From the IMG/VR virus record IMGVR_UViG_3300022200_000031, positions 14,848 to 78,847 of that record: a stretch of 64,000 nucleotides of DNA; one strand, given 5' to 3'. The notes beneath the pieces were generated by a model, which saw only the letters and a list, made by a program, of their open reading frames with translations, was not told the origin of the DNA and did no database searches. The stretch comes from a virus. Both the position numbers and the translations under genes were made by a program. This document shows positions 37,049 to 55,064 of this stretch, in pieces. Position 1 is the stretch's first letter. Each line of letters starts with the position of its first letter.

Positions 37049-37798
37049 ATGATTGGTATTGTTGGTTATGGATTTGTGGGTAAGGCTGTCGAATACGGCT
37101 TTAGCAAAACAGATCATTTTATTGTCGACCCCCTACATTTTCCAGAACACTCTCTAGCTGATCTAGTTGAGCACAATCCCGAAGCGATCTTTGTGTGTGT
37201 TCCTACTGATGATGGGGATCAGTTTGCTACATTAACTGATACTCTTGATCAGATTGCAGGTCTAGGCTACAAGGGTATTGTAGTAGTCAAATCTACTGTT
37301 CTTCCAAAGTACCTTGAGGGGTACAATGTTGTCTACAATCCTGAGTTTCTTTCTCGCCGTACTGCATTTGAAGATTTTGTAAAACCACACGTCTTAGTGA
37401 TTGGTGGCCAGCAATCTAAAGCAAAGCGTGTATTGGAAATGTATATGAACTACTCTGATGTTCGTTGTGATAACATCTTCCTCACTTCAGTTAATGCTGC
37501 CTCAATGGTTAAATATATGTTCAACACATACTATGCAACCAAACTAACCTTCATGAATCAGATGTATGATGTGGCGCAGCAGGCTGGTGTACATTGGAAT
37601 GATATCAAACAGATTCTTGGAAAACATCCATGGGTAGGAACATATCATCTTGATGTCCCTGGTTATGAGGGGCGAGGTTTTAGTGGTCCATGTCTTCCCA
37701 AGGATACAAAAGCCCTTGCTGCTGAATATGATGTTGAATTGCTACATAAGGTGTTGGAGTTAAACGACAAATACCGAGATGAAAACTCTACTAGTTGA
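37049..37798 (+). CDS. UDP-glucose/GDP-mannose dehydrogenase family protein (short form)
   Basis: GYGFVG, KST, NPEFL and GFSGPCLPKD motifs. Confidence 0.9.
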   Translation: MIGIVGYGFVGKAVEYGFSKTDHFIVDPLHFPEHSLADLVEHNPEAIFVCVPTDDGDQFATLTDTLDQIAGLGYKGIVVVKSTVLPKYLEGYNVVYNPEFLSRRTAFEDFVKPHVLVIGGQQSKAKRVLEMYMNYSDVRCDNIFLTSVNAASMVKYMFNTYYATKLTFMNQMYDVAQQAGVHWNDIKQILGKHPWVGTYHLDVPGYEGRGFSGPCLPKDTKALAAEYDVELLHKVLELNDKYRDENSTS

Positions 37799-38783
37799 AC
37801 TTTCAGAACAATGCAATCTCGATTGCTCGTACTGTGGTGTAAACAAAAGATCAAAACAGAAAGTAAATCTTGATCATGTTCTCGAGCAGTATAGTCTCCT
37901 GCGTTCAAAATACCCCGACGAGAAAATAAAGATAGACTTCTTCGGTGGTGAACCTTTGTTGCAGCTTGATAGAATTAAGTCTATTATTGAGGCTACAGAG
38001 AACGACCCCAATCTTGAATATTTTATGCCAACTAATGGTCTTGTTTTAACACAAGAAATGGCGGATTATCTGATATCAAAGAATGTAAGAATGTCACTAT
38101 CGTTTGATGGACTCTGGCAGGACGACAACCGAAAGCAATTATCCGGTAACGGCACTCTCACCAAGTATATGGCAAAGAGTGATCTATTTAAGTCTCTCCC
38201 ACTAGAATGTCATACTATGATCACTAGGGGAAACTATAATCTTCTTGAAAACCACCTTTTTATCCAGGACTTAATCGGAAAAAATTCCGATCAAACGCTT
38301 GTCCGTGACAGAAATATATGGGATAATGACAGTGTAGATAAACTAAAGGCTGGTATCACTGAGTTGTTTGAGTGGTATAAAAGACATCCAGAAAAAGAGA
38401 TGCCGGGGTTGATTAAACATTACCTTAGCCATATAGTAAGGTATAAGTATAAGAAGGTAGAGCTGAATACCTGTGGTGCTGGTGAGAAGATGATCACCGT
38501 TGCAGACGAAGACAAGGTTCTTCCCTGCGGTAGGTTTAGAAACGAACCAGACACTATTGCTAGTATTCCTATCTACACAAAAATGTCTGAGTGTGAGACA
38601 TGCGAAGTGAGACACTACTGTAAGAAGGGGTGTCTGTATGAACAGATACACAACGGTGGACCTATTAAGGAGCTGTGTGACATCTACAAGCATATCTACT
38701 CAGAAGAATTTAATATGATCAAACAGTTGAAGAATGATCAGCACTTTGTAGGTGTATTGAAAAAGGAAATTATGGATGCTTGA
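37779..38783 (+). CDS. Radical SAM/SPASM protein 1
   Basis: CNLDCSYC, FFGGEPLL, SFDG; C-terminal C...PC...CETC...CKKGC...C. Confidence 0.92.
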   Translation: MKTLLVELSEQCNLDCSYCGVNKRSKQKVNLDHVLEQYSLLRSKYPDEKIKIDFFGGEPLLQLDRIKSIIEATENDPNLEYFMPTNGLVLTQEMADYLISKNVRMSLSFDGLWQDDNRKQLSGNGTLTKYMAKSDLFKSLPLECHTMITRGNYNLLENHLFIQDLIGKNSDQTLVRDRNIWDNDSVDKLKAGITELFEWYKRHPEKEMPGLIKHYLSHIVRYKYKKVELNTCGAGEKMITVADEDKVLPCGRFRNEPDTIASIPIYTKMSECETCEVRHYCKKGCLYEQIHNGGPIKELCDIYKHIYSEEFNMIKQLKNDQHFVGVLKKEIMDA

Positions 38784-38994
38784 TGATAAAGACAAAGCGA
38801 ATGCATCGTTGTTTAATGCTGCTGCCCATCTAACAGAGGCAGCAAAGTATATGTCTGACATGGATAAGGGGATCTCACTAAAGATCTTTGCCATGGCAGA
38901 TAAGATCCTTTCCATTATTGATGCCCCCCAACCAAAGTTATCAAATAAAGAACTGGATGATATTCTGGAGGAGATTCTAAATGCAGAAGACTAG
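38776..38994 (+). CDS. Small helical hypothetical protein
   Basis: 72 aa, overlap-coupled between the two SPASM genes. Confidence 0.65.
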   Translation: MLDDKDKANASLFNAAAHLTEAAKYMSDMDKGISLKIFAMADKILSIIDAPQPKLSNKELDDILEEILNAED

Positions 38995-40117
38995 AGGACC
39001 GCTGGTAATTGAGCTGACTACCAGTGCATTATGTGATCTGAATTGCACATATTGCTTTGAGGGTGAGAAGGTTAACAAGCAGAGGCTTGAGGACTTTGAC
39101 ACACTGTATGCTAGGATTGATGAACTAACTAGTGACCCATGGTTTAAAGAAAACTACAATGGATTCACATTCTCATTTTGGGGCGGTGAACCGACACTTA
39201 ACCACGAGTATATTGTCAAAGTAATCAATCACTTCAAGGACCATCCTGCAGTAGGTCAGTTTCATATCTACACCAATGGTTTCAACTTCAAGAATATGAG
39301 TCGAATTATTGATAATGTAGACACAACCAAACTGCATATTCAAGTTTCATATGACGGTCAAATTACTAATGATATTTTCAGATTGACGAACAAAGGAACC
39401 TCCACAACTGAACAAGTACTAAATACCTTTGACAAATTGGCCAAAAGAGGTATTGATCTTGCAATAAAGAGTACACTACCCACTACTTCTATTTTTAGTC
39501 TGTATGATACATGGCTAGAATTTGAAGGTTTGGTTAATAAATATAAGGATTACCCAAACGTAAAAATTAACTTTGCGCCAACGATTGAGTATGCTATGGG
39601 ACACACACCATTTGGTGGGGAAACGGATCATGCAGTTGCAAAGTTTGAAAAGCAGATGAAAAAGATCGCCAAAAAGGAGATCGAATTCTACAAGGAGCAT
39701 GGAAGGTTCTTGTGCTCATGGTTTGGTAGCTCTGATAGTAAGACAAACTGTACTGCTGGAGCTAGTATGATGGCAGTAGATGTGGACGGTGGAGTGTATG
39801 CTTGCCATGGTGCTCTCTACTCTCCTCAGAAGGAAGACATGAAATCAGCAACGATTTTCGATAATGATTTCACTGTTAAGGTAAAAGACTTTGCGGACAA
39901 GCATGTTCCTGCAAGGCATAGGATTAATGACATCTGTAAGGGATGTGTTGCAACATACTGTGCTGTATGCCCTGTTGCGGTATATGACGCAAGTAAGAAG
40001 GTTGACCATCTAGATAGATGGACAGATAGATGTGTGAATGGGTTGTGTAAGTTCTATAAGGCGTTTGGGCGATTAGATAGAGCTGTACAGCACCATATAA
40101 ACAACTTGGAGAAGTGA
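38981..40117 (+). CDS. Radical SAM/SPASM protein 2
   Basis: CDLNCTYC, FWGGEP, SYDG; CTAG...YACH...CKGC...CAVCP...C. Confidence 0.92.
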   Translation: MQKTRGPLVIELTTSALCDLNCTYCFEGEKVNKQRLEDFDTLYARIDELTSDPWFKENYNGFTFSFWGGEPTLNHEYIVKVINHFKDHPAVGQFHIYTNGFNFKNMSRIIDNVDTTKLHIQVSYDGQITNDIFRLTNKGTSTTEQVLNTFDKLAKRGIDLAIKSTLPTTSIFSLYDTWLEFEGLVNKYKDYPNVKINFAPTIEYAMGHTPFGGETDHAVAKFEKQMKKIAKKEIEFYKEHGRFLCSWFGSSDSKTNCTAGASMMAVDVDGGVYACHGALYSPQKEDMKSATIFDNDFTVKVKDFADKHVPARHRINDICKGCVATYCAVCPVAVYDASKKVDHLDRWTDRCVNGLCKFYKAFGRLDRAVQHHINNLEK

Positions 40118-40118
40118 T

Positions 40119-40805
40119 ATGACAGTAGGTGTAGTTGACGCTGGTGATAATTGTACAGCAGCACATTGTATCAATCATGGTACAGGTACCACCACGTGTG
40201 TTGAACACCGCAGTACATGCTCAACCAACCGTGCATTGACATTCTCTGACTTTGCTCAGGGTGGCAACATTACTGCTACCCAGGTAGAGGAAATGAGAGT
40301 CAAGATTCGTGATGAGTTGGCTAGATACAACCTTCATGCTAACTACAACTACACATTGTACCAGCCAACAGCTATTGGTGCTGGTGGTATTGTGGATGAC
40401 ACTCACTATAACAACCTGAATGATATGATCCGTCAGGCCTACGGTTCCGATATCAATAAGGCTGCGGGTCAGCTGATTGATGATGCAGATTGGGATAACT
40501 TGATCTCATACTATAATGTGGTTCGCCAAAACTGCATCTGTAACACCGACTGCTCATGTAATAATGTGTGTGCGTGCCACAATGATTGTGATTGTAACTA
40601 CAGCGATGAAAGACTGAAGGAGAATATTAAGTATCTTGGTCTGGTAAGTGATCTGAAAGTGTACAGCTTCAATTATATCTGGAACAAAGCAGAAGAGATG
40701 ATTGGTGTGATGGCTCAGGATCTCATTGGTACCAAGTATGAGGATGCTCTTCGTAAAGACATTAACGGATACTACATGGTAGATTATAGTAGGTTGCCAC
40801 TCTAA
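40119..40805 (+). CDS. Cys-rich protein with C-terminal peptidase S74 autocleaving chaperone; candidate substrate of the cluster
   Basis: CICNTDCSCNNVCACHNDCDCNY followed by SDERLKENI...YSFNY...GVMAQD...GYYMVDYS. Confidence 0.85.
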   Translation: MTVGVVDAGDNCTAAHCINHGTGTTTCVEHRSTCSTNRALTFSDFAQGGNITATQVEEMRVKIRDELARYNLHANYNYTLYQPTAIGAGGIVDDTHYNNLNDMIRQAYGSDINKAAGQLIDDADWDNLISYYNVVRQNCICNTDCSCNNVCACHNDCDCNYSDERLKENIKYLGLVSDLKVYSFNYIWNKAEEMIGVMAQDLIGTKYEDALRKDINGYYMVDYSRLPL

Positions 40806-41553: not shown

Positions 41554-42156
41554 ATGATGGTATATGATTTAGCTATTGTGGAGGACCATGGTCACCACTA
41601 TAGAGTGATTGGTACAACAAAGAATACATTAGACCGTATGGCCGGTGAAGACTATATTAAAGTGTCATCGATGGCGTATGAAATGATTTGGCCTGCATTG
41701 CGAGATGGTAAGGAAGTAAGACTTCCTAAGGTTCTCCATACCAATGAAGTACTTCCCGGTGAAGTACAAATTATCGAACATAGTCCTGATGATGCAGATG
41801 CAGCACGCACTGCAGCACTGATCAAGGTACGCTCGCTTGTTGTCCCAGAGATGACTAAAGAGTCAGGATTCACTCTTTATAACTTCATGATGATGAATAA
41901 TGAGTTGGCAAGTGAAGGATACTTCATTACTAATAATAATCGTGAAGAAAAGTACATTGAGATCATCGAAACAGGCAATGAAAGGCTAATTGAAACCCTT
42001 GAGATGTACCTAGAAGCTAAGGATACCCTTGACCGGGCGGCCTCAATGAAAGTTCGGTTGGATAAGTTCCGTAAAGAAATCGGCCGAATGGATGCTGTAG
42101 ATGATATTAAGACGGCTACCGACAATTTCTTGGCTACATTCTATACCTCAAAGTAA
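41554..42156 (+). CDS. Hypothetical protein
   Basis: 200 aa, GGAG SD; helical C-terminal half. Confidence 0.7.
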   Translation: MMVYDLAIVEDHGHHYRVIGTTKNTLDRMAGEDYIKVSSMAYEMIWPALRDGKEVRLPKVLHTNEVLPGEVQIIEHSPDDADAARTAALIKVRSLVVPEMTKESGFTLYNFMMMNNELASEGYFITNNNREEKYIEIIETGNERLIETLEMYLEAKDTLDRAASMKVRLDKFRKEIGRMDAVDDIKTATDNFLATFYTSK

Positions 42157-42161: not shown

Positions 42162-42977
42162 ATGTCCGCTGTTGTATATCACTCAAACGATCATAAGAAG
42201 ATCAATGGTACTCTCTTCTATTGTTTTGAGTACTATGTACTGCTAAAAAGATACATTCCAGGCCTGCAGTATATCCTTCTCAATACTTCCGATGAAGATC
42301 TTCAATGGATGAAATCTATCTTTATTGAGAAGTATAACTTTGATCATGCTTATCTTAATGACATCACTAACCTAACAAGGCTTACAGATTTTGTTAGGTT
42401 GTCGGTTGATAATGTTCTAATCCTTGATATTCATACTTATAGTAGAGTAAAGGACTTTCTCGGAAAGGCTCGATCAGTTCGTGTGTATAGTAATGAGGAG
42501 CACAACTACCTGAACGCTAAACCCCATCATGTGTTCTATGGGTTCTACGACTATCAGACATTCAATAAAAAAACTAGAATCAAATTATATGCTGACATAC
42601 ACAAGAGGTTTCCTAATAAAAGAAACAAAGTGTTTGTTACGTCATTAAATGCAGACAATGATTATATTGTCAATCAGTTAGGATTAGATCCATCGAAGGT
42701 ATTTGTAAAAAATCTAAACAGTCACAATGAGAATATGTATGAACAGGTTGGTGAGATGATCTACTGGCATAGTTCACATACAGATACAAATAACCGAGCA
42801 ATAGTGGAGGCATACATCCATGATATTCCTCTGACCATACACTTCAATGGACACTATCATGATAGCATCTATGAGAGATCTAACACCATTGCTAATGGTG
42901 GTTTGCAGGAAATGTTTCTTGATCAGTCTGATATACTAATACAGGACTTCATTAATGATTGTACAAATACCAAGTAA
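42162..42977 (+). CDS. Hypothetical protein, possible glycosyltransferase-like fold
   Basis: NGTLFYCFEYY...EKYNF; C-terminal NRAIVEAY; paralogous to the next gene. Confidence 0.55.
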   Translation: MSAVVYHSNDHKKINGTLFYCFEYYVLLKRYIPGLQYILLNTSDEDLQWMKSIFIEKYNFDHAYLNDITNLTRLTDFVRLSVDNVLILDIHTYSRVKDFLGKARSVRVYSNEEHNYLNAKPHHVFYGFYDYQTFNKKTRIKLYADIHKRFPNKRNKVFVTSLNADNDYIVNQLGLDPSKVFVKNLNSHNENMYEQVGEMIYWHSSHTDTNNRAIVEAYIHDIPLTIHFNGHYHDSIYERSNTIANGGLQEMFLDQSDILIQDFINDCTNTK

Positions 42978-43854
42978 GTATGAGCTCTGCCTAACCTACT
43001 CTTGGGGTCCTATCGATCAGGGTATGTGTGGACACATATTTGAGTGTATTGAATACTACTTCATTCTGAAAGAACATTACAGTGTGTGTATATTCATTCC
43101 TGAGCCACTCAGCAAGAAGTTCATAGAGGATACTGTTAGGGACAAGTATGATTTCACAGAAGAGGAAACAACGGACCTTTTCGATAATACTATCTTTGGC
43201 AATCATCCTAAGATTCTGAAGGGAAGTAATGTACTGTTAACGGATGCTGGGTTTGGAAAGATGACTAACAGACATCTATTGTTTGATAACATCATGGCTT
43301 TTCCATGCGCCGATATGTCATTCAAACAAATGGAAGGTATTACTGTATTCCAGGATGACCGCATGTATGGTACGGATGCCAAATGCACAACCCATCACTA
43401 TGTAAAAAAGATTCTACTAGATCGTTATAAGACAATTGGTGATAGTGTTATTGATACTAACCTTGTATATGCTACTAAGAATGCAAGAGGGCTTGATGAG
43501 TCCATCTACACAGAGTTGGAGCAGTACCCAGGAAACTTTCTGCTGTTGACTAATACAGAGATTAAGGGTATACTATCCGATCGTTATACACAGGAAGAGA
43601 TGCCTGTGAAGAATCTATTTGAGAAGTTTAGTACATACATCTATACTCCTGTAGGAAAGAAGTATGATTGCAGTCCTAGATTCTTGGTAGAATGCAAGCA
43701 CTATGGTAAAAATGTTATATTCCATAACATTGACTATTGGGATGTTGATCATGGTTTGAAGTGGAGAGTCTATGACATCGAGTACGATTATGATTCACTA
43801 CTTCTTAGATCGGATGATAGTATCATAGAATTAATAGGAGACATCATTGGATAA
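42955..43854 (+). CDS. Hypothetical protein, possible glycosyltransferase-like fold
   Basis: CGHIFECIEYY...DKYDF; C-terminal DCSPRFLVECKHYGK. Confidence 0.55.
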   Translation: MIVQIPSKYELCLTYSWGPIDQGMCGHIFECIEYYFILKEHYSVCIFIPEPLSKKFIEDTVRDKYDFTEEETTDLFDNTIFGNHPKILKGSNVLLTDAGFGKMTNRHLLFDNIMAFPCADMSFKQMEGITVFQDDRMYGTDAKCTTHHYVKKILLDRYKTIGDSVIDTNLVYATKNARGLDESIYTELEQYPGNFLLLTNTEIKGILSDRYTQEEMPVKNLFEKFSTYIYTPVGKKYDCSPRFLVECKHYGKNVIFHNIDYWDVDHGLKWRVYDIEYDYDSLLLRSDDSIIELIGDIIG

Positions 43855-44449
43855 TTATTGTCTCACTGTAACATATAAATGTCAGTGGCATTGCCCATAC
43901 TGCATTACTGATACACACTCTAAGAGTATAGAGTATGATCAGGTACTAGACAACATTAAAAGGATACCCGATCGTGCTCATGTCTCCCTTAGTGGCGGAG
44001 AACCTGGTATGTTACCAACAGGAAAGATCATAGAGGTTATTAATAGACTGCGTGAGAAGCAATGTGTGGTACAGGTTAATAGCAATGGGTTGATTTTTAA
44101 AAGACCCGCTATTGTTGATATGGTGGACTTCATCTTCTACCATTGCAGTGAGAACCTGGATATTGATGATGAGGTTGTAAAGGATTACCCTGATAAGACT
44201 CAGTACATGGTAGTTGTAACAGACAACAACATTGATAAACTCAGATCATTTTTGGATAAGCATAATGATATTCATATATCAATTTATGCAGCTAAAGAGG
44301 TCCCTGTCAATGGTAAGGTTGGCGAACATCTCAGTAAAAAGAACGCTATCAGACTCGTGCGTGAGTTTAAGGATTACATCAAACCAGATGAGGTTCCACA
44401 CATCCTAAATTTCAATGAGTATACTTTGCAGACAGAACACATTAAATGA
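43847..44449 (+). CDS. Short radical SAM protein 3
   Basis: CQWHCPYC, SGGEP, NSNG; TTG start after AGGAG. Confidence 0.88.
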   Translation: MDNYCLTVTYKCQWHCPYCITDTHSKSIEYDQVLDNIKRIPDRAHVSLSGGEPGMLPTGKIIEVINRLREKQCVVQVNSNGLIFKRPAIVDMVDFIFYHCSENLDIDDEVVKDYPDKTQYMVVVTDNNIDKLRSFLDKHNDIHISIYAAKEVPVNGKVGEHLSKKNAIRLVREFKDYIKPDEVPHILNFNEYTLQTEHIK

Positions 44450-45450
44450 TTAATAATTATACATTTCCTTTAATTGATAAAGATGAACCTATATGTCAGC
44501 GCGCTAAACTTGACACAGGGACTTTCTGTAATTATGAGTGTTCTTTTTGTTACTATATTGATCGCCTGCATGAGAAGACAGATCTGGATGTGGTAAAACA
44601 GCGTGTGGATTATATCTATGAATGTGGTATCCGCGAAGTAGATCTTAGTGGGGGTGAATCTTCTGTCCGTACTGATTGGTTTGAGCTGCTGGACTATTGT
44701 AAGTCAAAGGAAATGTCAGTCAGTACGGTGACTAACGGATACAAGTTTGCTGACCATGATTTTATGAAAAAGTCAAAGGAGCATGGATTGCAGGAGATTC
44801 TGTTTAGTGTACATGGGCCCAATAATGACATCCATGATCTTGTAGTTGGAAGAAAAGGAGCATTTAAGCGAATCATTAAAGCAATTGAGAATGCCCATGA
44901 TCTAGGAATACTGGTTCGTATCAATTATGTTGTTAATCAACATAGCTACAGTCTAACAGATGAGTTTGTGTGCATGGTTGATCAGGTGAAGCCATATGAA
45001 CTGAACTTTCTCACACTAAACTTCTTTGGTTCCGCTAACGAGTATCTACCATACAAACTGTCTACTACTCATATCAAACACTGCATTGATATTGTTGACG
45101 TTCCTATTATTAATGTAAGGTATGTACCATATTGCTATATGGAAGGGTACGAGAAGTATGTCTGCAACACGTTCCAGCATATCTATGACAGATACGATTG
45201 GAATATGGCAGTGTATGATCAAAGAATAGATCCGGAAGTGTATAAAAAAGATCCTCTGGATGCATTATATAAGCAAGCGCAGGAAGACCGTAAGCGCATG
45301 TACTATAAACCAGAACAATGCAAGGGATGTAAGCATCTCCTAATATGTGATGGGTTGGAGAATGTAGTTCATGATGATGTAATGCCAACAGAAGGACCAG
45401 TGGTGAAGGAGATCAATCACTACAGGAAGGAATACTATGCCAAAGTATAG
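44446..45450 (+). CDS. Radical SAM protein 4 with C-terminal CxxC-x4-CDG
   Basis: CNYECSFC, SGGE, TNG, FSVHG; PYC...CKGCKHLLICDG. Confidence 0.9.
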   Translation: MINNYTFPLIDKDEPICQRAKLDTGTFCNYECSFCYYIDRLHEKTDLDVVKQRVDYIYECGIREVDLSGGESSVRTDWFELLDYCKSKEMSVSTVTNGYKFADHDFMKKSKEHGLQEILFSVHGPNNDIHDLVVGRKGAFKRIIKAIENAHDLGILVRINYVVNQHSYSLTDEFVCMVDQVKPYELNFLTLNFFGSANEYLPYKLSTTHIKHCIDIVDVPIINVRYVPYCYMEGYEKYVCNTFQHIYDRYDWNMAVYDQRIDPEVYKKDPLDALYKQAQEDRKRMYYKPEQCKGCKHLLICDGLENVVHDDVMPTEGPVVKEINHYRKEYYAKV

Positions 45451-46063: not shown

Positions 46064-46971
46064 AGGTATCTGGTGTAGATCATTATGAACAGAGATTGTA
46101 TGTTCATTGGGATGTAACTACTATTTGTGAGTACAAATGTTCCTACTGTTATGCTCGCAAACAATACAAGGATCAATGGAATCGTCCTGGAAACTGGGAG
46201 GATCACAAATACATTATTGACGAGTTGAGTAAGAGTACACTCCCTGTGTTTCTTGGTCTCCTTGGTGGAGAACCAACATCCCATCAGAGATACTTTACTT
46301 TACTTGATATGATTAATGAGAAAGTACTAACTCATCCAGACTCCAGAATGTATATTACAACCAATGGAGCCAAGAGTACAGAGTTCTTTGATAAGCATAA
46401 GACATCTAACGGTAAAACTTATTTCCTTTGGAGTCTCCACCCTGAGTATGCAGACTTCGATACATTCTATAACAATGTTCAATTGATGAACAGCAAAGGA
46501 TACAAAACAAAGATAAATTTGATGCTTCATCCTGGCAAAAGATACTGGGAAAGACAAAAGGAATGGTATTATCAGCTATCGGAGCTCCACTATGCTATAC
46601 TACATCCTCATTTCATCTATCATGGGTTTGATAAGGATGTGAAGTATACAGATGAATTCTTTGAGGAGTTTAACTTCCTACAGGATCAGAGAATAAAGGA
46701 ATTTGTGTTTGAGGATAGTGTAGGAGAGAGTTATATACTTTCCGACTATGAGATATTCAAGGGTGGGCATAACCAGTTCAAGGGCTGGCAGTGTTGGCAT
46801 AATAATTTCGAGATTAGGAATGATGGGTTGATATCCGATCAATGTTTTGATAGGCAGGGTAGACAAATCACAAAGGACTTCTTTAAGAATATTACAGAGA
46901 TCGTACCCAGAGTATGTCCACACAACTATTGTAGCTGTGATGGCCTAATGAAGATTAGGAAAGAAAAATGA
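46051..46971 (+). CDS. Radical SAM protein 5 (twitch-like C-terminus)
   Basis: CEYKCSYC, LGGEPT, TNG, SLHPE; FKGWQC...C...CPHNYCSC. Confidence 0.9.
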   Translation: MDFIKVSGVDHYEQRLYVHWDVTTICEYKCSYCYARKQYKDQWNRPGNWEDHKYIIDELSKSTLPVFLGLLGGEPTSHQRYFTLLDMINEKVLTHPDSRMYITTNGAKSTEFFDKHKTSNGKTYFLWSLHPEYADFDTFYNNVQLMNSKGYKTKINLMLHPGKRYWERQKEWYYQLSELHYAILHPHFIYHGFDKDVKYTDEFFEEFNFLQDQRIKEFVFEDSVGESYILSDYEIFKGGHNQFKGWQCWHNNFEIRNDGLISDQCFDRQGRQITKDFFKNITEIVPRVCPHNYCSCDGLMKIRKEK

Positions 46972-47861
46972 AAATAATGAATGCTACACGTGAGTACGAT
47001 GTCCACATCTGTTACGATATTACACTAGCATGCAACAATAGATGTGAGTACTGCTACTGCCTGGATGACCTTGACAATAAGAAGAAATGGAATGAGGAAA
47101 CATTCCAACTATTCAAACAGGAACTTGCTAAGCTAACAGATTATAGGGTTCGTGTGTCTCTTGTGGGTGGAGAACCCCTAGTAATACATGACAAACTACA
47201 TCGTGTTAAAGAATTACCAATTAGTAGCCTGCAGATCATTAGTAATCTCAACTTCCCCGAAAGAAACTTTGAAAAGATCCTGACCAATGTAGTGGATGTA
47301 AATCCCAACCTACTTGCTGTGTCATGGCACCCATCCTCCAAACTGGATGATGTTAGAAGGAATATCCTGAAGGCAAAAGAGGCTGGTTTAAATGTAGTGA
47401 TATCATATCTACTTGATCAGGATAACCTGGATGAGATCTGGGAGGAGGCACATTGGGCATTGAATAATGAAATCTGGTTTGTTGTAGACATCATACATAC
47501 TAATGGGGAAGATAGATTTAAGGATAAACGAAACGCCAAGTATGTTAAACTACTCCATCTATCCCAGAGACTGCCCGTAGATCTGCAGATCATTGATCCA
47601 CTAACAGTTACTATTGATGAAAGCATCTACGATCAGGTTGATATGATGCTGCTGGATATGAAAGACATCTCTAAGCGATACTACACACAATGTAAACACA
47701 CTGCATTGGATGTACATTATGATGGTAGCTATGATGTACAATGTAGTCATCCATACTCAGGTCATCTGAAGGATGGACTTGAGATCAGAAGCGTGTTTTG
47801 TGACAATCACACATGCGATAAAAATGTTACAACTTATAAGAGACTACTAAGACGTAAATGA
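46968..47861 (+). CDS. Radical SAM protein 6
   Basis: CNNRCEYC, VGGEPL, SWH; C-terminal Cys set. Confidence 0.9.
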   Translation: MKIMNATREYDVHICYDITLACNNRCEYCYCLDDLDNKKKWNEETFQLFKQELAKLTDYRVRVSLVGGEPLVIHDKLHRVKELPISSLQIISNLNFPERNFEKILTNVVDVNPNLLAVSWHPSSKLDDVRRNILKAKEAGLNVVISYLLDQDNLDEIWEEAHWALNNEIWFVVDIIHTNGEDRFKDKRNAKYVKLLHLSQRLPVDLQIIDPLTVTIDESIYDQVDMMLLDMKDISKRYYTQCKHTALDVHYDGSYDVQCSHPYSGHLKDGLEIRSVFCDNHTCDKNVTTYKRLLRRK

Positions 47862-48775
47862 CCAAGATAATGAACGCCCACAATGAATATGTTGTGGACC
47901 TACACTATGATATTACATTGGCATGCAACAACCGTTGTAGTTACTGCTATGCCCTGGATTATCTTGACAACAAGAAGAAGTTTAATGAGGAAACATTTGG
48001 CCAGTTAAAGGAAGCGTTGGTACAGTTCCGGAAAGATAATCCTGAGTACAAGATAAGGCTAACATTGTTGGGCGGTGATCCTTTTGTGATTGAGAACTTT
48101 AGTAGAGTGAAGGAACTTCCTGTTGATAGCGTTGAGATCTTATCCAACCTCAACTTTCCCAAGAGACACATTGATAAGATAATGCCAACTCTGCAGAGCA
48201 TGAAATGTTTTGTCGCTGCATCATGGCATGAATCATCTGATATTGAATTGGTGAAATCAAATGTCCTAAGAATGAAGGGGGAGGGTATTGATATTGGTAT
48301 TTCCTTCCTTCTTGATGATAAGAATCTCCCGTGGGTGTACGAACATGCCCTCTGGGCAATCGGTAATGACATTCCCTTTGATGTGGATATTATACGCGAC
48401 AAAGATAATAATGATTTATTTACTGACACAGATGATGCTCGGTATGGGTCAATGTTAATTAACTCCAGGCGACTACTTGTGTCCTCTGCAGGTGAGGAAG
48501 TGTACAACACTATTGACGATCGTCATTTTAATGTATATGATATGTACAAGTATGATCTAAAGAATATCTCCAGTCAATACTATACAGAATGTAAACTATC
48601 TGCTCTGGCAGTTAGATATGATGGTACAATCAACTCCCAGTGTGGCTACCATTACAAAGATCACATATCTAACGGATTAAAGATCCCCAAAGTTTTTTGT
48701 GATAATAGGACATGCTATTGCAACACCACCACATACAAAAGACTCCTAAGACCAAAAGCGGGTGCCAAGGTATGA
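47858..48775 (+). CDS. Radical SAM protein 7 (paralogue of 6)
   Basis: CNNRCSYC, LGGDPF, SWH; CDNRTCYC. Confidence 0.9.
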   Translation: MTKIMNAHNEYVVDLHYDITLACNNRCSYCYALDYLDNKKKFNEETFGQLKEALVQFRKDNPEYKIRLTLLGGDPFVIENFSRVKELPVDSVEILSNLNFPKRHIDKIMPTLQSMKCFVAASWHESSDIELVKSNVLRMKGEGIDIGISFLLDDKNLPWVYEHALWAIGNDIPFDVDIIRDKDNNDLFTDTDDARYGSMLINSRRLLVSSAGEEVYNTIDDRHFNVYDMYKYDLKNISSQYYTECKLSALAVRYDGTINSQCGYHYKDHISNGLKIPKVFCDNRTCYCNTTTYKRLLRPKAGAKV

Positions 48776-49545
48776 TGCTAGAATGGGAATGCATCCTAGA
48801 GTGCAACTACAAGTGCTCATATTGCTGTAGGTTTAATGGACCGGCTGGTGTGACTGGTCCTATACGATACGAGAAGGATAAGGAGAAGGTTTTTGCTTTC
48901 CTTAGTAATCTGAAAGAAAAGTATCCAGACTCAGAGTTGTTTGTCTTTGGTGGGGAACCTTTCGTTCATCCATTCATTGAGGATATTGTTGCTCATCTTA
49001 ATAGAATACAGATGCCATTTGTTATACAATCTAATTTCACATTATATGAAAGGATGTATAATCTACTAAAGAAGGAAAACTATCCCCTACAGATATCTCT
49101 TCATCCAGATGATATACAGGATGAGGAAGAGATGCTCAGACAGCTGGCAGTGTTTGCTGATCACATTAGACGAATAGATGTAATGTATACTGGTCGGCAG
49201 GCCCTGGATCTTTACAAGAAGATTCTACCGGTGATAGGCAACAACAAACATAAACTATACATTGCTCCTGTTGCTGACTTTGAGATGGATGCTGGGATGA
49301 ATGAGCATCTATATGACTTCAACCGATTGAAGAAAGATAGTGTAATGGGTAGAGTGTATAACTTTGAAGATGGTGAGCGTAGTTTCATTTGGGAAGACCA
49401 GATGAAAGGCTCATTCTCCCTCAAAGGAAAACCATGCCCTTATATTGGAAAGTATATTATGTATGATCCTCAGCTGAATGGATATAGCTGCAACTACAGA
49501 CAGAATAACGACATATGTCCCAACAATCATTGTTTCTTGGCCTAG
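48772..49545 (+). CDS. Radical SAM protein 8
   Basis: CNYKCSYC, FGGEPF, SLHP; KGKPC...SC...CPNNHC. Confidence 0.9.
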   Translation: MMLEWECILECNYKCSYCCRFNGPAGVTGPIRYEKDKEKVFAFLSNLKEKYPDSELFVFGGEPFVHPFIEDIVAHLNRIQMPFVIQSNFTLYERMYNLLKKENYPLQISLHPDDIQDEEEMLRQLAVFADHIRRIDVMYTGRQALDLYKKILPVIGNNKHKLYIAPVADFEMDAGMNEHLYDFNRLKKDSVMGRVYNFEDGERSFIWEDQMKGSFSLKGKPCPYIGKYIMYDPQLNGYSCNYRQNNDICPNNHCFLA

Positions 49546-49552: not shown

Positions 49553-50413
49553 ATGAAACTACACATTAGAATTGCAGGTGCATACTCTCACTATAACAAA
49601 CTTCTGCCAATGGCAATGAAGTTTCGTGGGAAGGCTAACCTTACTGTATATGATGGAATCAATCTATGTAGGTGGAACGGTGGAAGAATCAATCGGGAGG
49701 TATTTGACTCTGAGCAGCAGAAGCAGGCATATGAGAATCTTGGAGTGAACTTTGCATTTGTGTTCTCCAACCCAACAATTGATCTAAACGACCCTGTTGG
49801 TAATGATATACTAGAAAGGTATCATAGAGAAGGCAACTCTATTATTCTGCAGAACTATGATCTCCTAGAATATGTACGCACAAAGTTTCCATTGTATCAA
49901 ACAGTTTTTTCTATTACTGGACATCCAGGAGGAGTAGTTAAAGATCCTACTAACTACTACCAGCAGCTCGAGAGACACTTTGATATAATTGTACCTAAGC
50001 TAGAACACAATATGGTGATTGAACAATACACAGATGATGTTAGTAAGTATGAGTTACTGATTAACGATGATTGTGTGTATAATTGTCCTGTTTGGCGAAA
50101 ACACTTTGATGCTATTGCCCAGAAAAACACAGAAGGATTGATCTACAGTAGTGATCTAGAATCAGTAGAAGAATGCTGGCTGCCGAAAACTATATTTGAT
50201 CCCAGTGTTGGTGATACGAAGATGATGAAGGAGCTTGGTATTGAGTTTGGAATGAGTCTAACGAAAGAGCACCTGAAGAATAGAATGCAGGTTGGTATCA
50301 ACAAATTCAAACTCAGTGGTAGGGAGTTTGGAACACACTCTCCTACATATGAGAGCTACCTGCAAAGTTTGATAGAGATGATAGATGATGCAAAAGATTA
50401 TATGTACAAATGA
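49553..50413 (+). CDS. Peptidase U32-like (Fe-S) protein
   Basis: YELLINDDCVYNCP...H...C and FKLSGRE, resembling the U32 KIxGR motif. Confidence 0.6.
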   Translation: MKLHIRIAGAYSHYNKLLPMAMKFRGKANLTVYDGINLCRWNGGRINREVFDSEQQKQAYENLGVNFAFVFSNPTIDLNDPVGNDILERYHREGNSIILQNYDLLEYVRTKFPLYQTVFSITGHPGGVVKDPTNYYQQLERHFDIIVPKLEHNMVIEQYTDDVSKYELLINDDCVYNCPVWRKHFDAIAQKNTEGLIYSSDLESVEECWLPKTIFDPSVGDTKMMKELGIEFGMSLTKEHLKNRMQVGINKFKLSGREFGTHSPTYESYLQSLIEMIDDAKDYMYK

Positions 50414-51308
50414 CTTTATGGATGACTACACCTATGTTGAGTTTGAGGTGTTTACATCCTGTAACAAGTCCTGTGATTACTGCTACAATCTTCTCCAGCA
50501 TCCGAAGAGATTTCATAACACCTATGATGGTCTGATTAGTATCCTTGATAGGATTATGCAATCGGATAATAAGAGAGTGGTTATTGGAATGATTGGTGGT
50601 GAACCATTCATTCATAAGAGATTCAATGATGTAGTTAATCACATCTATGACAACTGCGATCCAATGCATAAACTGCAAACATTTACTCATGGGGATCATA
50701 AGCCAGCATTCCATAAGAATAGAATAGACAACCTAGCTAAGTTTGGGGATCGTGTTAAGTTGACTACTTCGATTCACTATGACTATATTGACTATGACAA
50801 CTTTGCAAAGAACCTCGAGTACACAGATTCCAAATTAAAGTACAATGTTCTCAGTACTATGGTCGGAGACAATATTGCGGATCGCATAGATCTTCTTGAT
50901 GATCTGATGGCACGCACTAAGAATACCACTCTTCATCTATTTGTGGATGATAGAGAGGAGCAGGACTACATCCAGCTACTCAAAAGGTATAATCAATATC
51001 AGACCATAATGAGTAGATACACAGAACGGATGGATAACTACTATCTTGTTGATGAAAAAAAGATCCCATGGAATGTTGCCAAAATGCAAATTATCAAGGA
51101 TAATGGGTTTGTATTTACTGGTAGGAAATGTACTCCTACCTATTATGAGGTAATGCAGGATGGATCTGTATACCAGGAATGTAACAGAGGATGCCTAGGC
51201 AACGTGTATGACAGCAATGAATTATTCAATGTGAGATCATTTCCATGTGATATTCATCGCTGCCCACCGAACCTATCAAAAATTTATGTTGAAAAAACAG
51301 ATACTTGA
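50385..51308 (+). CDS. Radical SAM protein 9
   Basis: CNKSCDYC, IGGEPF, SIH; FTGRKC...EC...CDIHRCP. Confidence 0.9.
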   Translation: MMQKIICTNDFMDDYTYVEFEVFTSCNKSCDYCYNLLQHPKRFHNTYDGLISILDRIMQSDNKRVVIGMIGGEPFIHKRFNDVVNHIYDNCDPMHKLQTFTHGDHKPAFHKNRIDNLAKFGDRVKLTTSIHYDYIDYDNFAKNLEYTDSKLKYNVLSTMVGDNIADRIDLLDDLMARTKNTTLHLFVDDREEQDYIQLLKRYNQYQTIMSRYTERMDNYYLVDEKKIPWNVAKMQIIKDNGFVFTGRKCTPTYYEVMQDGSVYQECNRGCLGNVYDSNELFNVRSFPCDIHRCPPNLSKIYVEKTDT

Positions 51309-51990
51309 ATACTCATATAAGCAGGGACTTTCACATATTCCCTCTGCTTTGTCTATGTGTACCTATGTCGAATGTATCTTTCGTGGTCGATATGTTACCC
51401 CTGAAGATGCAATCATAATTGGAAAGCCTTTTGGTGCTCAGATGTATTATCTCCTATGGAAGGATCTTGGGTACCTGGACAACATTGAGCAGCTATCAAT
51501 GGGTGTGAAATCAGAAGAGATTCCTTTTGTTGACTACTCAGAGGAAACAATGGGAAATGCTCTTGGTGTGGCTGCTGGGATTGGACTATCTTCTGATAGG
51601 AATATCTGGGTGAACATCTCAGACGCTACCCTGCAGATGGGAAACACACTAGAGGCCATTCAGTTTATTGGACACAACCAGATTCCAATGCTCGTGACCG
51701 TGGACTTTAATGAGACTCAGGTGACAGGATATACAGGAGACATTATTCCTGTACTTCCCATATATGAAATGGCTCGTGGATACGGTTGGGATGTGGATAT
51801 TGTAATAGGCAATAGCGATATGCATGTAGATACTGCCCTGACTCTCACCAATCCTAAAAAGCCAACGATTATCTTTATGAGAACAGTCAAGGGGTCTGGT
51901 GTACCAGAAATGGAAGCAGATCCTTTTGGATGGCACTACAGAAAGATAGAATCAGAGGAACAGCTACAATCAATGGTACGGGGATTATGA
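51286..51990 (+). CDS. Transketolase N-terminal (ThDP-binding) subunit
   Basis: SHIPSALS, GNALGVAAG, SDATLQMG..EA...VDFNETQ, TVKGSGV..ME...WHY. Confidence 0.85.
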   Translation: MLKKQILEYSYKQGLSHIPSALSMCTYVECIFRGRYVTPEDAIIIGKPFGAQMYYLLWKDLGYLDNIEQLSMGVKSEEIPFVDYSEETMGNALGVAAGIGLSSDRNIWVNISDATLQMGNTLEAIQFIGHNQIPMLVTVDFNETQVTGYTGDIIPVLPIYEMARGYGWDVDIVIGNSDMHVDTALTLTNPKKPTIIFMRTVKGSGVPEMEADPFGWHYRKIESEEQLQSMVRGL

Positions 51991-52454
51991 GACAGACACT
52001 ACATAAGTTCTTGCACCGCTACAAAAAGGCAACTCTTCTCCATTGTGATATGTGGAAGTGGAATGGTGACTATCAAACCATCAATTGTGGTGTTGGTGAA
52101 CCAAATATGGTCAACGTTGCTGCTGGCATGGCATCGCAGGGAAAACAGGTAGTGATTTATGGGGTGGCTGGATTCGTCATATATAAAGCGTACGAGCAAA
52201 TCAAACTAAACATCAAGGGATGGGCAGAGCATCATGGATCGATTGTATTTGTTAATGCTGGTCATAACGGGTGTTACGATGTATGTGGTCGCGGACATCT
52301 TGTGTACGATGATTACAAGCTGATGGATGCATTGGACATTCCTCTATACGATCCAATGAATAGAAAGACATTTGTTCGTGATTTGAAAGATGGGTTGAAG
52401 AGACCCGGAGTTAGATTTATCCGTTTAGGATGGGATGGTGAAAGGTGGATGTAG
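51987..52454 (+). CDS. Transketolase pyrimidine-binding subunit (short)
   Basis: INCGVGEPNMVNVAAGMA..G, AYEQIK, FIRL. Confidence 0.85.
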   Translation: MRQTLHKFLHRYKKATLLHCDMWKWNGDYQTINCGVGEPNMVNVAAGMASQGKQVVIYGVAGFVIYKAYEQIKLNIKGWAEHHGSIVFVNAGHNGCYDVCGRGHLVYDDYKLMDALDIPLYDPMNRKTFVRDLKDGLKRPGVRFIRLGWDGERWM

Positions 52455-53056
52455 TAGTTACAGGTGCAACTGGATTTATTGGTACACACTTATGCAGTGC
52501 TCTCAAGAGTCAGGGCCATAATGTTATTGAGATGGGTCGTTATTATACACGAGTGAAATGTGACCGTGTATATCATTTGGGCGGTCCATCCACATCAGAA
52601 TACATTAACAGTAATCCGGCCGGGATTATTGATATTACTGTTGATAAGACACGCGAAGCATTGGCAATATGTCCCGATGCTCTATTTGTCTATGCATCCA
52701 GCAAGGGAGCAGAACAATTAACTGTTGACAATACACCTCAGATGGGATATAATACCGCTAAGAGATTAATGGAAATTTATCTACAGTACAGTGGGGTGGA
52801 TCATAAAGTCTACCGACTGCCATCTGTCTACGGAGAAGGGATGCATAATGATATGTTCATAAAGAGGTGTATCGATGGAAATGCAACAGCACCTAGCGAT
52901 CCTGATAAAGTACATTATATTGGTCATGTTAATGATATTGTGGATTCACTGGTCAGACTAGAACCAATGAAAGTTGAAATGATTACACTTGGAGAAATAT
53001 ATGAAAGTTTTGGTTCTGGGCGGCGCGGGCTTCATAGGTCGGCACCTATCGGCTAG
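52445..53056 (+). CDS. NAD-dependent epimerase/dehydratase (SDR)
   Basis: VTGATGFIG, YASS, YNTAK, RLPSVYG. Confidence 0.88.
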   Translation: MDVVVTGATGFIGTHLCSALKSQGHNVIEMGRYYTRVKCDRVYHLGGPSTSEYINSNPAGIIDITVDKTREALAICPDALFVYASSKGAEQLTVDNTPQMGYNTAKRLMEIYLQYSGVDHKVYRLPSVYGEGMHNDMFIKRCIDGNATAPSDPDKVHYIGHVNDIVDSLVRLEPMKVEMITLGEIYESFGSGRRGLHRSAPIG

Positions 53057-53909
53057 GATAAAGGATATCGGTGGTGAGGTTACTATTATCGACAACCTCG
53101 ATACCTCACATGGACATGGACTAGAAGAGTATAACTTTGTAAATGCCGACCTAAGAACCATTGATGAAAAGCTATTAGAGGATCTTTGCCGTGAGGCTGA
53201 CATCGTATACCATCTTGCAGGATCAGTTGGCGTTGAGTTGGGGGATAAGGAACCAAAGCGTACTCTATACAACAATGTGGAACTGATGTTAAAGATCATG
53301 CCTATCTTCGAACGGGCAGGTACTCATGTTGTATTTGCCTCCACATCAGAGATTTATGGTAATGGTCCAACATTTAATGAAGATGACTCTGCTGGAATTG
53401 GACCATCAAAATACACACGATGGGGATATTCTACTACTAAACTTCTATCTGAGTTCATGTTTCGTGTATCAGATATCCCATATAATCTCATTCGTTTCTT
53501 CAATATTGTTGGTCCTGGCCAACTACCAGACTATGGAATGGTACTCCCCCGCTTCGTGGATGCCGTGAAGAACAATCGATCTCCTCTGGTTCATGGGGAT
53601 GGTTCGCAGATTCGTTCATTCTGTCATATTAATGATGCGGTTGAGATGCTACTGCGAGTTAAGGAACATCCCGGTGAGTTGTTTAATATTGGGAACTCCA
53701 ACAACGCTATAAGCATGAGTGATTTGGCTCATAAAGTTATTGAGGTTGCCAAAAGTGATGTTTTGGTGGAATATGTGCCATACGGTGATGTGTTTAGTGA
53801 AAGGTTTGAGGATATTATGTACAGAGTACCCGATACAACCAAGATCAATCATATGACTGGCTATGTACCAAAGTACACTTTAGATGATATAATTGAGAGT
53901 ATGTTATGA
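53001..53909 (+). CDS. NAD-dependent epimerase / UDP-glucuronate decarboxylase-like SDR
   Basis: GGAGFIG, ASTSEIYG, WGYSTTK, RFFNIVGP, GDGSQIRSFC. Confidence 0.9.
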   Translation: MKVLVLGGAGFIGRHLSARIKDIGGEVTIIDNLDTSHGHGLEEYNFVNADLRTIDEKLLEDLCREADIVYHLAGSVGVELGDKEPKRTLYNNVELMLKIMPIFERAGTHVVFASTSEIYGNGPTFNEDDSAGIGPSKYTRWGYSTTKLLSEFMFRVSDIPYNLIRFFNIVGPGQLPDYGMVLPRFVDAVKNNRSPLVHGDGSQIRSFCHINDAVEMLLRVKEHPGELFNIGNSNNAISMSDLAHKVIEVAKSDVLVEYVPYGDVFSERFEDIMYRVPDTTKINHMTGYVPKYTLDDIIESML

Positions 53910-54565
53910 GTAAAATTCTATTTGTTTTTGCACACCCCGATGATGAAGCATATGGTCCAGCAGGCACGATTGCCAAGTTGGCAGAAGACCATGAGGTAAC
54001 AGTGGTCAGTATGTGCCGCGGAAATCGTCCGGGGCATGAAGAAGTGTGTGATTCACGCAAACAGGCGTTTCAGAAGTCATGTGAGACATTGGGTGCAACA
54101 CCTATTATGTTTGAGTATTCTGACTGTAAGTTAGACTATGATGAAACCCTCAAGCGTATAGAGGAACTGGTTGAGAAGATCCAACCAAAAGTTGTCTATA
54201 CTCATAGCAATACAGATATTCATAAGGACCACCGATTGGTAGCTGAGTGCACTATGGTTGCATGCCGACCAAAGCCTCAGTCCTCTGTTAATGCATTGTA
54301 TATGTGTGAACTCCCAGCAGCAACAGACTGGTCATTCAATCAATTCAATAATGGGTTTAAGCCAAATGTATATAAGGATGTCTCCAACTACATTTGGAAA
54401 AAGCAGCAGGTGATGGGATTGTATGCTACCGAGACCTATAACTATCCTGATGCTCGTTCTATCGAGGCAATGGAAGCGTTAGCTATGCATCGTGGGAAGC
54501 AGGTTGGGATGCATCGTGCAGAAGCGTTTCAATTGGTATTCTCTCATGACCGTGGAATTCAGTAA
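53906..54565 (+). CDS. PIG-L/LmbE-family N-deacetylase
   Basis: AHPDDE and THS..D.HKDH motifs. Confidence 0.9.
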   Translation: MSKILFVFAHPDDEAYGPAGTIAKLAEDHEVTVVSMCRGNRPGHEEVCDSRKQAFQKSCETLGATPIMFEYSDCKLDYDETLKRIEELVEKIQPKVVYTHSNTDIHKDHRLVAECTMVACRPKPQSSVNALYMCELPAATDWSFNQFNNGFKPNVYKDVSNYIWKKQQVMGLYATETYNYPDARSIEAMEALAMHRGKQVGMHRAEAFQLVFSHDRGIQ

Positions 54566-55064
54566 ACCCTTGCTTCTCTAGGATCAGTTTATATAACCCA
54601 TACGGGTCCTCATTATAAGGAAAACAGAACTGGGTTGGTCTGTAGTTGAGATTTGAATCAAACCAGGCCAGCATCAGTTCTGTATCCATCTTCATATGAT
54701 AAATCTTGTCAACAATAGAGTCCAATTGATCTAATCTTTTATGATTATGTGAATGGCCGCCAATAGTGGTGTATGGGTCATTCATTAGATCTCTGACCTG
54801 TTCTAGGTTCATGTAGTTACTCTTGTCCCCAGCGAATGCTTTCTGATGAGCCTCCCTGCAGGTAATGAATTCTGCCGATTGAGTTCCCATGGCCAGAATA
54901 TTGGTTGAGATGAAATATATCTTTGGCGTCTTGAATTTTTGGAATTCTTTTCGATATAAGTACTGGGTATACAATCCATCATCGAACGTCAGCACATAAT
55001 TCTCAAGGGGAAGATCGAACATCTTCTCGTCAACTTCATGAATCATTAGCACTGGTTTGTTCAT
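54483..55064 (-). CDS. Polysaccharide deacetylase (NodB/CE4)
   Basis: LTFDDG, GHSHNH, FCFPY. Confidence 0.88.
   Translation of the reverse strand: MNKPVLMIHEVDEKMFDLPLENYVLTFDDGLYTQYLYRKEFQKFKTPKIYFISTNILAMGTQSAEFITCREAHQKAFAGDKSNYMNLEQVRDLMNDPYTTIGGHSHNHKRLDQLDSIVDKIYHMKMDTELMLAWFDSNLNYRPTQFCFPYNEDPYGLYKLILEKQGFTEFHGHERIPIETLLHDASQPASHDA

Follow-up and report, generated by a model that had tools for sequence, protein, structure and literature searches.

IMG/VR virus record IMGVR_UViG_3300022200_000031 carries a block of biosynthetic genes, hereafter the island, at positions 37049 to 55064 of the 64,000-nucleotide stretch analysed (the window; bases 14848-78847 of the 78.8 kb record, whose CheckV completeness is 46%). 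The island comprises 24 open reading frames (ORFs), numbered g1 to g24 from the ORF listing, 23 on the plus strand and one on the minus strand; neighbouring genes are -68 to +7 bases apart (Table 1). A first-pass annotation, made from the sequence alone, had described about 23 near-gapless, coupled genes at this place, and the description holds. None of the 24 proteins has a membrane-spanning segment; all are predicted to be soluble. The record belongs to a T4-like myovirus with genes for a baseplate hub, wedge proteins (gp6-, gp7- and gp8-like) and several tail fibres; its gp6 has Methylophilales phage Melnitz and Pelagibacter myophages as nearest cultured relatives (38-42% identity).

Table 1. 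Features of the island and its flanks, in window coordinates (aa, amino acids; rSAM, radical SAM; RRE, recognition element of RiPPs, peptides made by ribosomes and modified after translation; GT, glycosyltransferase; ThDP, thiamine diphosphate; PP and Pyr, pyrophosphate- and pyrimidine-binding; SDR, short-chain dehydrogenase/reductase)
Feature	Position	Strand	Basis or remark
T4-type late promoter consensus TATAAATA	33980..33987	+	upstream of tail-fibre gene; last before island
Tail-fibre gene, 971 aa	34124..37039	+	directly upstream of island
g1, truncated nucleotide-sugar 6-dehydrogenase-like, 249 aa	37049..37798	+	profile; CP220 gp019 homologue
g2, rSAM-SPASM, CteB/PapB-like, without N-terminal RRE	37779..38783	+	profile and CteB alignment
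g3, 72 aa helical protein between two SPASM enzymes	38776..38994	+	conserved in phage and bacterial copies
g4, second rSAM-SPASM	38981..40117	+	best matches PapB, CXXX-repeat maturase, anSME, CteB; all below cut-offs
g5, Cys-repeat fibre-type protein, candidate substrate	40119..40805	+	Pfam, alignment of relatives
g6, 248 aa	40805..41551	+	no family; no homologue in 51 related loci
g7, conserved 200 aa, always after g5	41554..42156	+	CP220 gp015 homologue
g8, conserved 271 aa protein	42162..42977	+	weak similarity to g9, E 0.007
g9, GT-B fold glycosyltransferase	42955..43854	+	structure model, pLDDT 94
g10, short rSAM, 200 aa	43847..44449	+	Pfam, NCBIfam
g11, most conserved island rSAM	44446..45450	+	46% to CP220 gp163
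g12, small soluble GT2 glycosyltransferase, DDD motif	45437..46063	+	56.8 bits
g13, g14, g15, three ~300 aa rSAM proteins	46051..48775	+	C-terminal auxiliary Cys sites
g16, rSAM with C-terminal auxiliary Cys set	48712..49545	+	Pfam, NCBIfam
g17, U32-fold TIM barrel, Cys 39, 174, 178, 208	49553..50413	+	structure model
g18, rSAM	50385..51308	+	Pfam below cut-off, motif present
g19 + g20, minimal ThDP enzyme in two pieces (PP first, Pyr second)	51247..52454	+	Pfam
g21 (short SDR) + g22 (full SDR)	52445..53909	+	profile
g23, PIG-L/BshB-like N-acetylhexosaminyl deacetylase, HPDD motif	53906..54565	+	84 bits
g24, NodB-type deacetylase, FDDG and HSHNH motifs	54483..55064	-	21.3 bits, just below cut-off
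Next TATAAATA motif	55083..55090	+	precedes tail-fibre-assembly-like gene
Tail-fibre-assembly-like gene (phrog_1084/3304)	55123..55485	+	same gene also 3′ of island in locus L037

Nine island proteins (g2, g4, g10, g11, g13, g14, g15, g16 and g18) match the Pfam family Radical_SAM (PF04055). Seven do so above its cut-off; g15 and g18 reach 26.9 and 25.2 bits against 29.5, and both have the motif CxxxCxxC, which stands near the N-terminus of all nine. A search of the whole record returned the same nine. The number of rSAM enzymes first annotated is thus borne out, as are the two full SPASM-type cysteine sets, which belong to g2 and g4. One auxiliary site of four or five cysteines is found in each of g13-g16 and g18. 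The neighbours g14 and g15 (46968-48775) are tandem paralogues, 48% identical; as most related loci have weak counterparts or none, this duplication is recent and local. A phmmer search with g13 gave no match.

An abundance of rSAM genes has been met before. For Campylobacter phage CP220, in which 11-12 were counted, a boost of host metabolism was suggested (PMC2853527), and a marine T4-like genome reported in 2017 has 12 of them and carries Fe-S assembly genes as well (PMC5332604), as would suit auxiliary metabolic genes that stimulate an anaerobic-type metabolism of the host. Against this, none of the nine island enzymes reaches the NCBIfam cut-off of any housekeeping rSAM family, and their genes share a conserved operon with those for glycosyltransferases and a fibre-type protein. 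A metabolic role appears extremely unlikely.

The C-terminal parts of g2 and g4 contain 7-8 cysteines with SPASM spacing; cysteines lie at residues 232, 250, 272, 275, 281, 285 and 300 in g2, and at 245, 257, 275, 319, 322, 327, 330, 351 and 356 in g4. Over most of their length the two proteins are best matched by maturases that form thioether links in peptides or proteins, namely PapB, QhpD, SCIFF/CteB, the CXXX-repeat maturase and anSME. g2 aligns with the CteB structure 5wgg (E 1e-15) from CteB residue 97 onwards, and g4 scores 63.6 bits with the CXXX-repeat maturase model TIGR04115 (cut-off 350), i.e. below the family threshold. TIGR04463, the family of CrpC (see below), is absent among the best 25 of 63 matches of g2 and the best 25 of 44 of g4; it gave weak N-terminal matches only, to g14-g16.

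The gene following g4 encodes the Cys-rich S74 protein already recognised in the first-pass annotation. The product, g5, has 12 cysteines and a C-terminal S74 domain (PF13884; 31.8 bits, cut-off 22) with an SDxxxK motif, SDERLK, at residue 162. An N-terminal four-Cys motif ending in CSTNR is followed by a helical middle, four CxC hexads (approximately residues 139-161) and the S74 domain. Alignment of relatives shows the N-terminal motif to be conserved and the hexad run to be nearly invariant, ending ...CGCNY right before the S74 catalytic serine. Relatives without S74, found in Halobacteriovorax and some phages, have ...CGCNY or CGCHY as their very last residues, precisely where cleavage is predicted, indicating that mature g5 ends with the Cys repeat. 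Judging from the sequence, the S74 domain presumably trimerises and cleaves itself off. The Cys pairs of g5 are followed by Asn or Asp, much as acceptors follow Cys in PapA-type motifs. The signature C-[SA]-[TA]-N-R, present once at the g5 N-terminus and twice in gp140 of CP220, resembles the sulfatase motif C-x-[PA]-x-R; formation of formylglycine by an anSME-type reaction is an idea that this resemblance might suggest.

Related loci were collected by scanning with an alignment of the g11 family (a single g11 sequence as query gave none). The scan yielded 46 loci in IMG/VR. A genome scan added two Halobacteriovorax genomes, the complete chromosome of Peredibacter and two short contigs of metagenome-assembled genomes to the carriers of the family. 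Many of the IMG/VR loci keep the order g1-g2-g3-g4-g5-g7-g8-g9-(g10)-g11-g12-g13...g16-g17-(g18)-g19-g20-g21-g22-g23-g24; co-occurrence of Cys-rich S74, rSAM and sugar genes thus extends to dozens of phage contigs, the order often being retained. Of the 51 related loci, 31 have g2/g4 homologues and 20 have not. In the first group, 26 loci have a Cys-repeat ORF no more than 2.2 kb away (no more than 40 bases in 17); in the second, none has. As these loci are related, the counts do not represent independent events. Four of the five g2/g4 loci without an intact Cys-repeat ORF hold degenerate or broken copies. The form of the repeat also changes with the enzymes. Hexads travel with g2/g4 proteins at 40-58% identity; a second form, made of CxCNCNY heptads, occurs with g2/g4 proteins at ~25% identity and a third SPASM gene. 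Such co-variation fits enzyme and substrate evolving together, and we judge it probable that the SPASM enzymes are functionally linked to the Cys repeat.

Periodic cysteines also invite a different explanation, namely a metal-thiolate or Fe-S core on the axis of a trimer, comparable to the metal-binding HxH rows of T4 gp37 and gp12. The rSAM enzymes would then not modify g5, which would be a small fibre gene travelling with an unrelated biosynthetic kit. The CxC spacing is metallothionein-like and strictly periodic, S74 points to a trimeric fibre tip (PMC10769870), and CrpA, the Cys-repeat protein introduced below, is itself suspected of metal binding (PMC13692751). The association of SPASM enzymes with repeat type, and their co-variation in phages and bacteria, would however be hard to explain without a functional link, and a metal core and cross-linking are not mutually exclusive. 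We consider this explanation fairly unlikely.

The closest experimental precedent, by analogy, favours cross-linking. CrpC of Methanococcus voltae, a SPASM rSAM enzyme described in 2026, installs ranthionine cross-links on the 29 kDa Cys-repeat protein CrpA (PMC13692751), that is, SPASM-made thioethers on a whole Cys-repeat protein. As in the window, the SPASM gene lies beside the gene for a whole protein with a C-terminal periodic Cys repeat, and there is a small second protein (CrpB there, g3 here). The two systems differ in that CrpC (TIGR04463) has an RRE, which g2 and g4 lack, and in that the CrpA repeat consists of 17-residue CxxQ/D units instead of CxC hexads; the CrpC/CrpA system is not viral and includes neither an S74 domain nor sugar genes. 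The ranthipeptide/SCIFF maturases CteB and PapB, the top matches for g2 and g4 by sequence as well as by structure, have the full SPASM Cys set in common with them. Their systems use an RRE and a leader-core peptide, whereas the window has no RRE and offers a 161-residue mature candidate with a self-cleaving chaperone domain. The C-terminal S74 and SDxxxK motif make g5 similar to the S74 fibres of phages K1F and T5 and to the MAT fibres of Bdellovibrio (PMC10769870); unlike these, g5 is very small, has no profile-recognised beta-helix-type body and carries its Cys repeat right at the cleavage site.

Neighbours of g5 differ in their conservation. Neither g3 nor g6 has an NCBIfam match. The related loci all place g7 right after g5 and have no homologue of g6, suggesting that g6 is a lineage-specific insertion. 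The CP220 homologue of g7, gp015, adjoins tail assembly and baseplate hub genes, and g7 is possibly an assembly factor; structure comparison gave no usable match (Atlas TM < 0.32), and a match to a tail-assembly chaperone is a lead only.

Among 50,697 deposited phage records, megablast with the island gave no match, and homologues of g4, g9 or g11 are confined to the Firehammerviruses. A tblastn search of the CP220 genome with the 24 island proteins identified homologues of 11 (g1, g2, g4, g7, g9, g11, g19, g20, g22, g23 and g24), with 46% identity for g11 (gp163), 42% for g20 and 36% for g24; g19 and g20 correspond to gp072 and gp141. The link to CP220-like phages, as carriers of many rSAM genes and similar sugar enzymes, that was drawn in the first-pass annotation is therefore correct. 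The order SDR, PIG-L, NodB is common to CP220 and the window. Also alike in the Firehammervirus set (CP220, CPt10, CP21 and IBB_35) is a Cys-heptad protein beside the g20 homologue. This protein, gp140 in CP220 (L013 5592-7193), has 534 residues and 35 cysteines, adjoins gp141 and lies near the g4-like gp136. Six 21-bp repeats in its gene ('Repetitive region x.1-x.6') encode CTCDCNY heptads. By position, length and mass, gp140 corresponds to gene 3-9 of IBB_35, whose 60.3 kDa product was identified in purified virions. The Firehammervirus set differs from the window in that its genes are scattered, gp140 has no S74 domain and CP220 adds an amidinotransferase. The rSAM and carbohydrate genes were noted as oddities in the IBB_35 paper, and our literature search found no paper that explains the island.

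The first-pass annotation had proposed one phage cluster. Its expectation of a module widespread in phages is confirmed; the island is, however, also present in chromosomes of predatory bacteria, and it consists of two separable parts rather than one pathway. Three predatory bacteria keep the order g2-g3-g4-g5-g7-g8-g9-g11 at 30-53% identity. On the 3′ side of g11 these copies have four more rSAM genes, unknowns and genes for a DegT aminotransferase, PIG-L, SDR and NodB; cytochrome genes lie upstream. A g11 orthologue is present in 8 of the 121 Bacteriovoracales genomes searched. The carriers encode many S74 proteins (22 in Peredibacter), and one further S74 fibre gene adjoins each island copy. 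S74-terminated trimeric fibres serve as prey adhesins in Bdellovibrio (PMC10769870). We also weighed whether the bacterial copies belong to a contractile tail element; as the three genomes have no sheath gene, this was rejected. In Peredibacter the g5 homologue (L063 6780-7379) stops 12 residues into S74, and an overlapping ORF of 93 residues (7373-7654) encodes the rest; this frameshift may stem from an error in sequencing, or the split may be real.

We refer to g1-g8 as part A of the proposed system and to g9-g24, which would draw on g1 as well, as part B. The two come apart in viral genomes: in a 183 kb record part B lies ~30 kb from the Cys-repeat gene, and in a 185 kb record that is 88% complete it is present without any detectable Cys-repeat gene, from which it follows that the target of part B need not be g5. 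Gene content varies too. In place of the window's sugar genes, one phage lineage has genes for a PseB-like dehydratase, a DegT protein, a B12-rSAM and a 2-oxoglutarate oxygenase. Swapping of sugar genes between lineages is expected for an exposed decoration, and we read the separable and variable part B as a swappable decoration kit.

Most of the sugar enzymes first annotated are upheld, and their catalytic motifs are intact. The UDP-sugar dehydrogenase g1 is real in that it keeps the Rossmann and central domains and the catalytic Cys motif CLPKD; it is truncated, lacking the C-terminal UDP-binding domain, and scores 115.9 bits with TIGR03026 (UDP-glucose 6-dehydrogenase) against a cut-off of 189.8. 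Two GT-like paralogues had been proposed. One of them, g9, is modelled with a GT-B fold, and its top Foldseek rows are all GT-B proteins (BshA first, then GT4 and T4 AGT/BGT) with probability ~1, the E value being only ~1e-3; a PDB profile search with its sequence returned nothing. g9 occurs in 46 of the 51 related loci, each time beside g11. The other, g8, resembles g9 weakly. The GT2 (g12) and the two SDRs are confirmed, the families closest to g22 being UDP-glucuronate decarboxylase and UDP-4-keto-pentose synthases. The split transketolase proved to be a ThDP enzyme in two pieces (g19, 36.9 bits with Transketolase_N; g20, 19.8 bits with Transket_pyr, below cut-off), and of the two deacetylases PIG-L is clear and NodB, sub-threshold, keeps its motifs. 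Pairing of a GT2 with a NodB enzyme recalls the logic of NodC/NodB and PgaC/PgaB. With no membrane protein, flippase, polymerase or polyprenyl-phosphate transferase in the island, a pathway for a lipid-linked surface glycan was rejected for part B; the lack of membrane segments implies a cytoplasmic target. Soluble glycosyltransferases that are encoded by phages and work on phage components in the cytoplasm are familiar from mycobacteriophage virion glycosylation and the T4 DNA glucosyltransferases. Such systems rely on nucleotide sugars of the host or on simple sugar genes, and we know of none with rSAM, U32 or ThDP enzymes.

The U32-like protein, g17, was recognised through its fold. Its model (pLDDT 82) found the U32 protein Mk0906 as best of 48,161 chains (Z 14.9, rmsd 3.2 over 213 residues; next-best row Z 12.2), a result that sustains the first assignment although no Pfam or NCBIfam profile matches g17, that of U32 included, and a PDB profile search returned nothing. 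The protein has exactly four cysteines, invariant in 14 sequences, which probably hold an Fe-S site. The U32 family, with Fe-S enzymes of the UbiU/UbiV, TrhP and RlhA types, includes O2-independent hydroxylases (bioRxiv 10.1101/587956; PMC10990095), and a role of this kind would fit g17.

Part B, perhaps even the whole island, might instead make a free amino sugar of nucleoside or aminoglycoside type that acts on host, prey or competitors. The g11 family, with 411 relatives in metagenomes at E < 1e-10, has BlsE and the viperins, enzymes with sugar or nucleotide substrates, as nearest solved enzymes, and the UDP-glucuronic acid route of g1, the GT-B enzyme g9 and a BlsE-like g11 recall the first steps to blasticidin-type nucleosides. 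A GT-B enzyme paired with a PIG-L deacetylase is a feature of bacillithiol, mycothiol and aminoglycoside pathways. An amidinotransferase in CP220, a halogenase in one phage lineage and the 88%-complete record with part B and no g5 would also suit such a product, and both lytic phages and predatory bacteria kill Gram-negative cells. The g11 match covers only the rSAM core, however, and scores 57 bits where the cut-off is 400; there is neither an exporter nor a resistance gene, nor any ligase or enzyme that would release a nucleobase; the sugar genes vary by lineage, as in surface glycans; and part B usually resides in a genome with the fibre gene, often in the same operon. A free small molecule seems to us unlikely. 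The halogenase, a tryptophan-halogenase-like flavin enzyme, is encoded between the two ThDP halves at L029 18341-19579 (also in L028).

Modification of DNA is another function for which glycosyltransferases might be recruited, such as placing a tailored sugar on a base to evade host restriction. T4 GT-B DNA glucosyltransferases are among the fold matches of g9, some CP220 homologues lie among nucleotide-metabolism genes, and phage hypermodification clusters can contain rSAM enzymes. As first annotated, no recognisable DNA-modification gene is present in the island: base-hydroxymethylase, kinase, transglycosylase, DpdA and Que genes are all lacking. QueC and ThyA-like genes are also absent from a 100%-complete phage genome of 202 kb that carries the island; the record of the window itself is only 46% complete. 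The modification dADG reported for CP220 DNA is accounted for by the Que genes of that phage, and the bacterial island is chromosomal, beside fibre genes. Hypermodification of phage DNA is therefore very unlikely.

Flanking tail-fibre genes and late promoters had been noted, and indeed the island is flanked by tail-fibre and baseplate genes, with TATAAATA at 33980 and 55083. The window has 10 copies of this consensus where 3.8 are expected, and none lies between these two positions. That the island has no TATAAATA of its own and lies 3′ of a fibre gene that has one counts in favour of the interpretation given below, in which late expression is presumed. Scans of the island for sigma-70 type promoters and intrinsic terminators stayed at chance level (59 promoter-like sites, 69 expected), which gives no basis for defining transcription units within it. 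At 52725-52753 on the plus strand, inside g21, there is one site that fits the sigma-70 consensus perfectly (TTGACA, 17 bases, TATAAT; 12/12). The 1801-residue structural protein directly upstream of the fibre gene (28507-33912), with three DUF4815 stretches, shares a late-promoter-free stretch with that gene. g23 and g24 (53906-55064) are convergent and overlap by 83 bases, as in L037; in L023, L041 and CP220, unlike in the window and L037, g24 is co-directional.

The last ~140 residues of the upstream fibre (YADLAEKY...GRVPVRV domain) also end the upstream ORF in 16 related viral loci. This domain (YADLAEKY...GVVS..PA..MN...GRVPVRV; window ~36560-37036) corresponds to phrog_22593/19602, has no Pfam family and gave no NCBIfam match. 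It was seen in L014, L017, L019, L020, L023-L025, L028-L031, L037, L043 and L046, and the N-terminal parts of the ORFs that end in it differ greatly in length, from 331 to 1116 residues. Near-identical DNA is present in freshwater metagenomes of four studies (one perhaps the source), the runs containing 94-98% of sampled words of window positions 36000-45999; the nearest cultured relatives infect marine bacteria.

Taken together, these data suggest that the island encodes a kit of soluble proteins for maturation in the cytoplasm, in which two parts reside together. The RRE-less g2 and g4, probably aided by g3, would introduce cross-links of thioether type into the Cys repeats of g5. The S74 domain would fold the protein, presumably as a trimer, and then cleave itself off right after the last CxCNY unit, and the mature, stapled g5 would join the virion or, in predatory bacteria, a fibre apparatus. 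In part B, the two glycosyltransferases, a UDP-glucuronate-type route (g1 and g22), the ThDP enzyme, the two de-N-acetylases, the U32-type enzyme and 6-7 auxiliary-cluster rSAMs would cooperate in making an unusual sugar, probably derived from a uronic acid and bearing a free amine, to be attached to g5 or to a neighbouring tail fibre. We give about even chances to thioether stapling of a virion fibre-type protein combined with glycan decoration of that protein or a neighbouring fibre. Which protein would receive the glycan (g5, a neighbouring fibre or another) can be named with less assurance than that.

Several observations weigh against this interpretation. On the enzyme side, the PapB model NF047865 gives 113.7 bits for g2 and 87.4 bits for g4 against a cut-off of 340, and both proteins are without an RRE, the cluster motif beginning at residue 12 in g2 and 18 in g4. 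On the substrate side, g5 matches no curated rSAM-target family: Pfam reports S74 only, and NCBIfam nothing for g5 or four homologues, the CXXX-repeat target (TIGR04114/PF27846) included. A structural neighbour cluster in which 19% of members have PF27846 is a lead only. The CxC repeats could equally bind metal, and inspection of the bacterial homologues of g5 revealed no obvious signal peptide in their sequences. CP220 homologues are scattered among replication and nucleotide genes, detection of the IBB_35 gene 3-9 product in virions had 2.6% sequence coverage, and the 185 kb record separates part B from any Cys-repeat gene. Finally, synteny with a tail fibre may merely reflect common descent of one phage lineage.

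The broader proposal, that one kit shared by lytic phages and predatory bacteria turns a small self-cleaving trimeric fibre into a thioether-stapled, amino-sugar-decorated adhesin or tip, is put forward tentatively, at somewhat less than even chances. If true, virus particles would have their first example of a RiPP-type cross-link installed by enzymes, and the rSAM genes of Campylobacter phages, puzzling since 2010, would be accounted for. Since the Firehammerviruses, with their 11-12 rSAM genes, can be cultured, the rSAM question is testable. The island defines many unstudied families, among them auxiliary-cluster rSAMs, a U32-fold Fe-S protein, a compact GT-B enzyme and a minimal ThDP enzyme. 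On the reading given here, radical chemistry so far associated with RiPP peptides and a few cellular proteins would also mature virion proteins, which could affect fibre stability, receptor binding and host range, and would tie the biology of phage tail fibres to that of the fibre adhesins of predatory bacteria.

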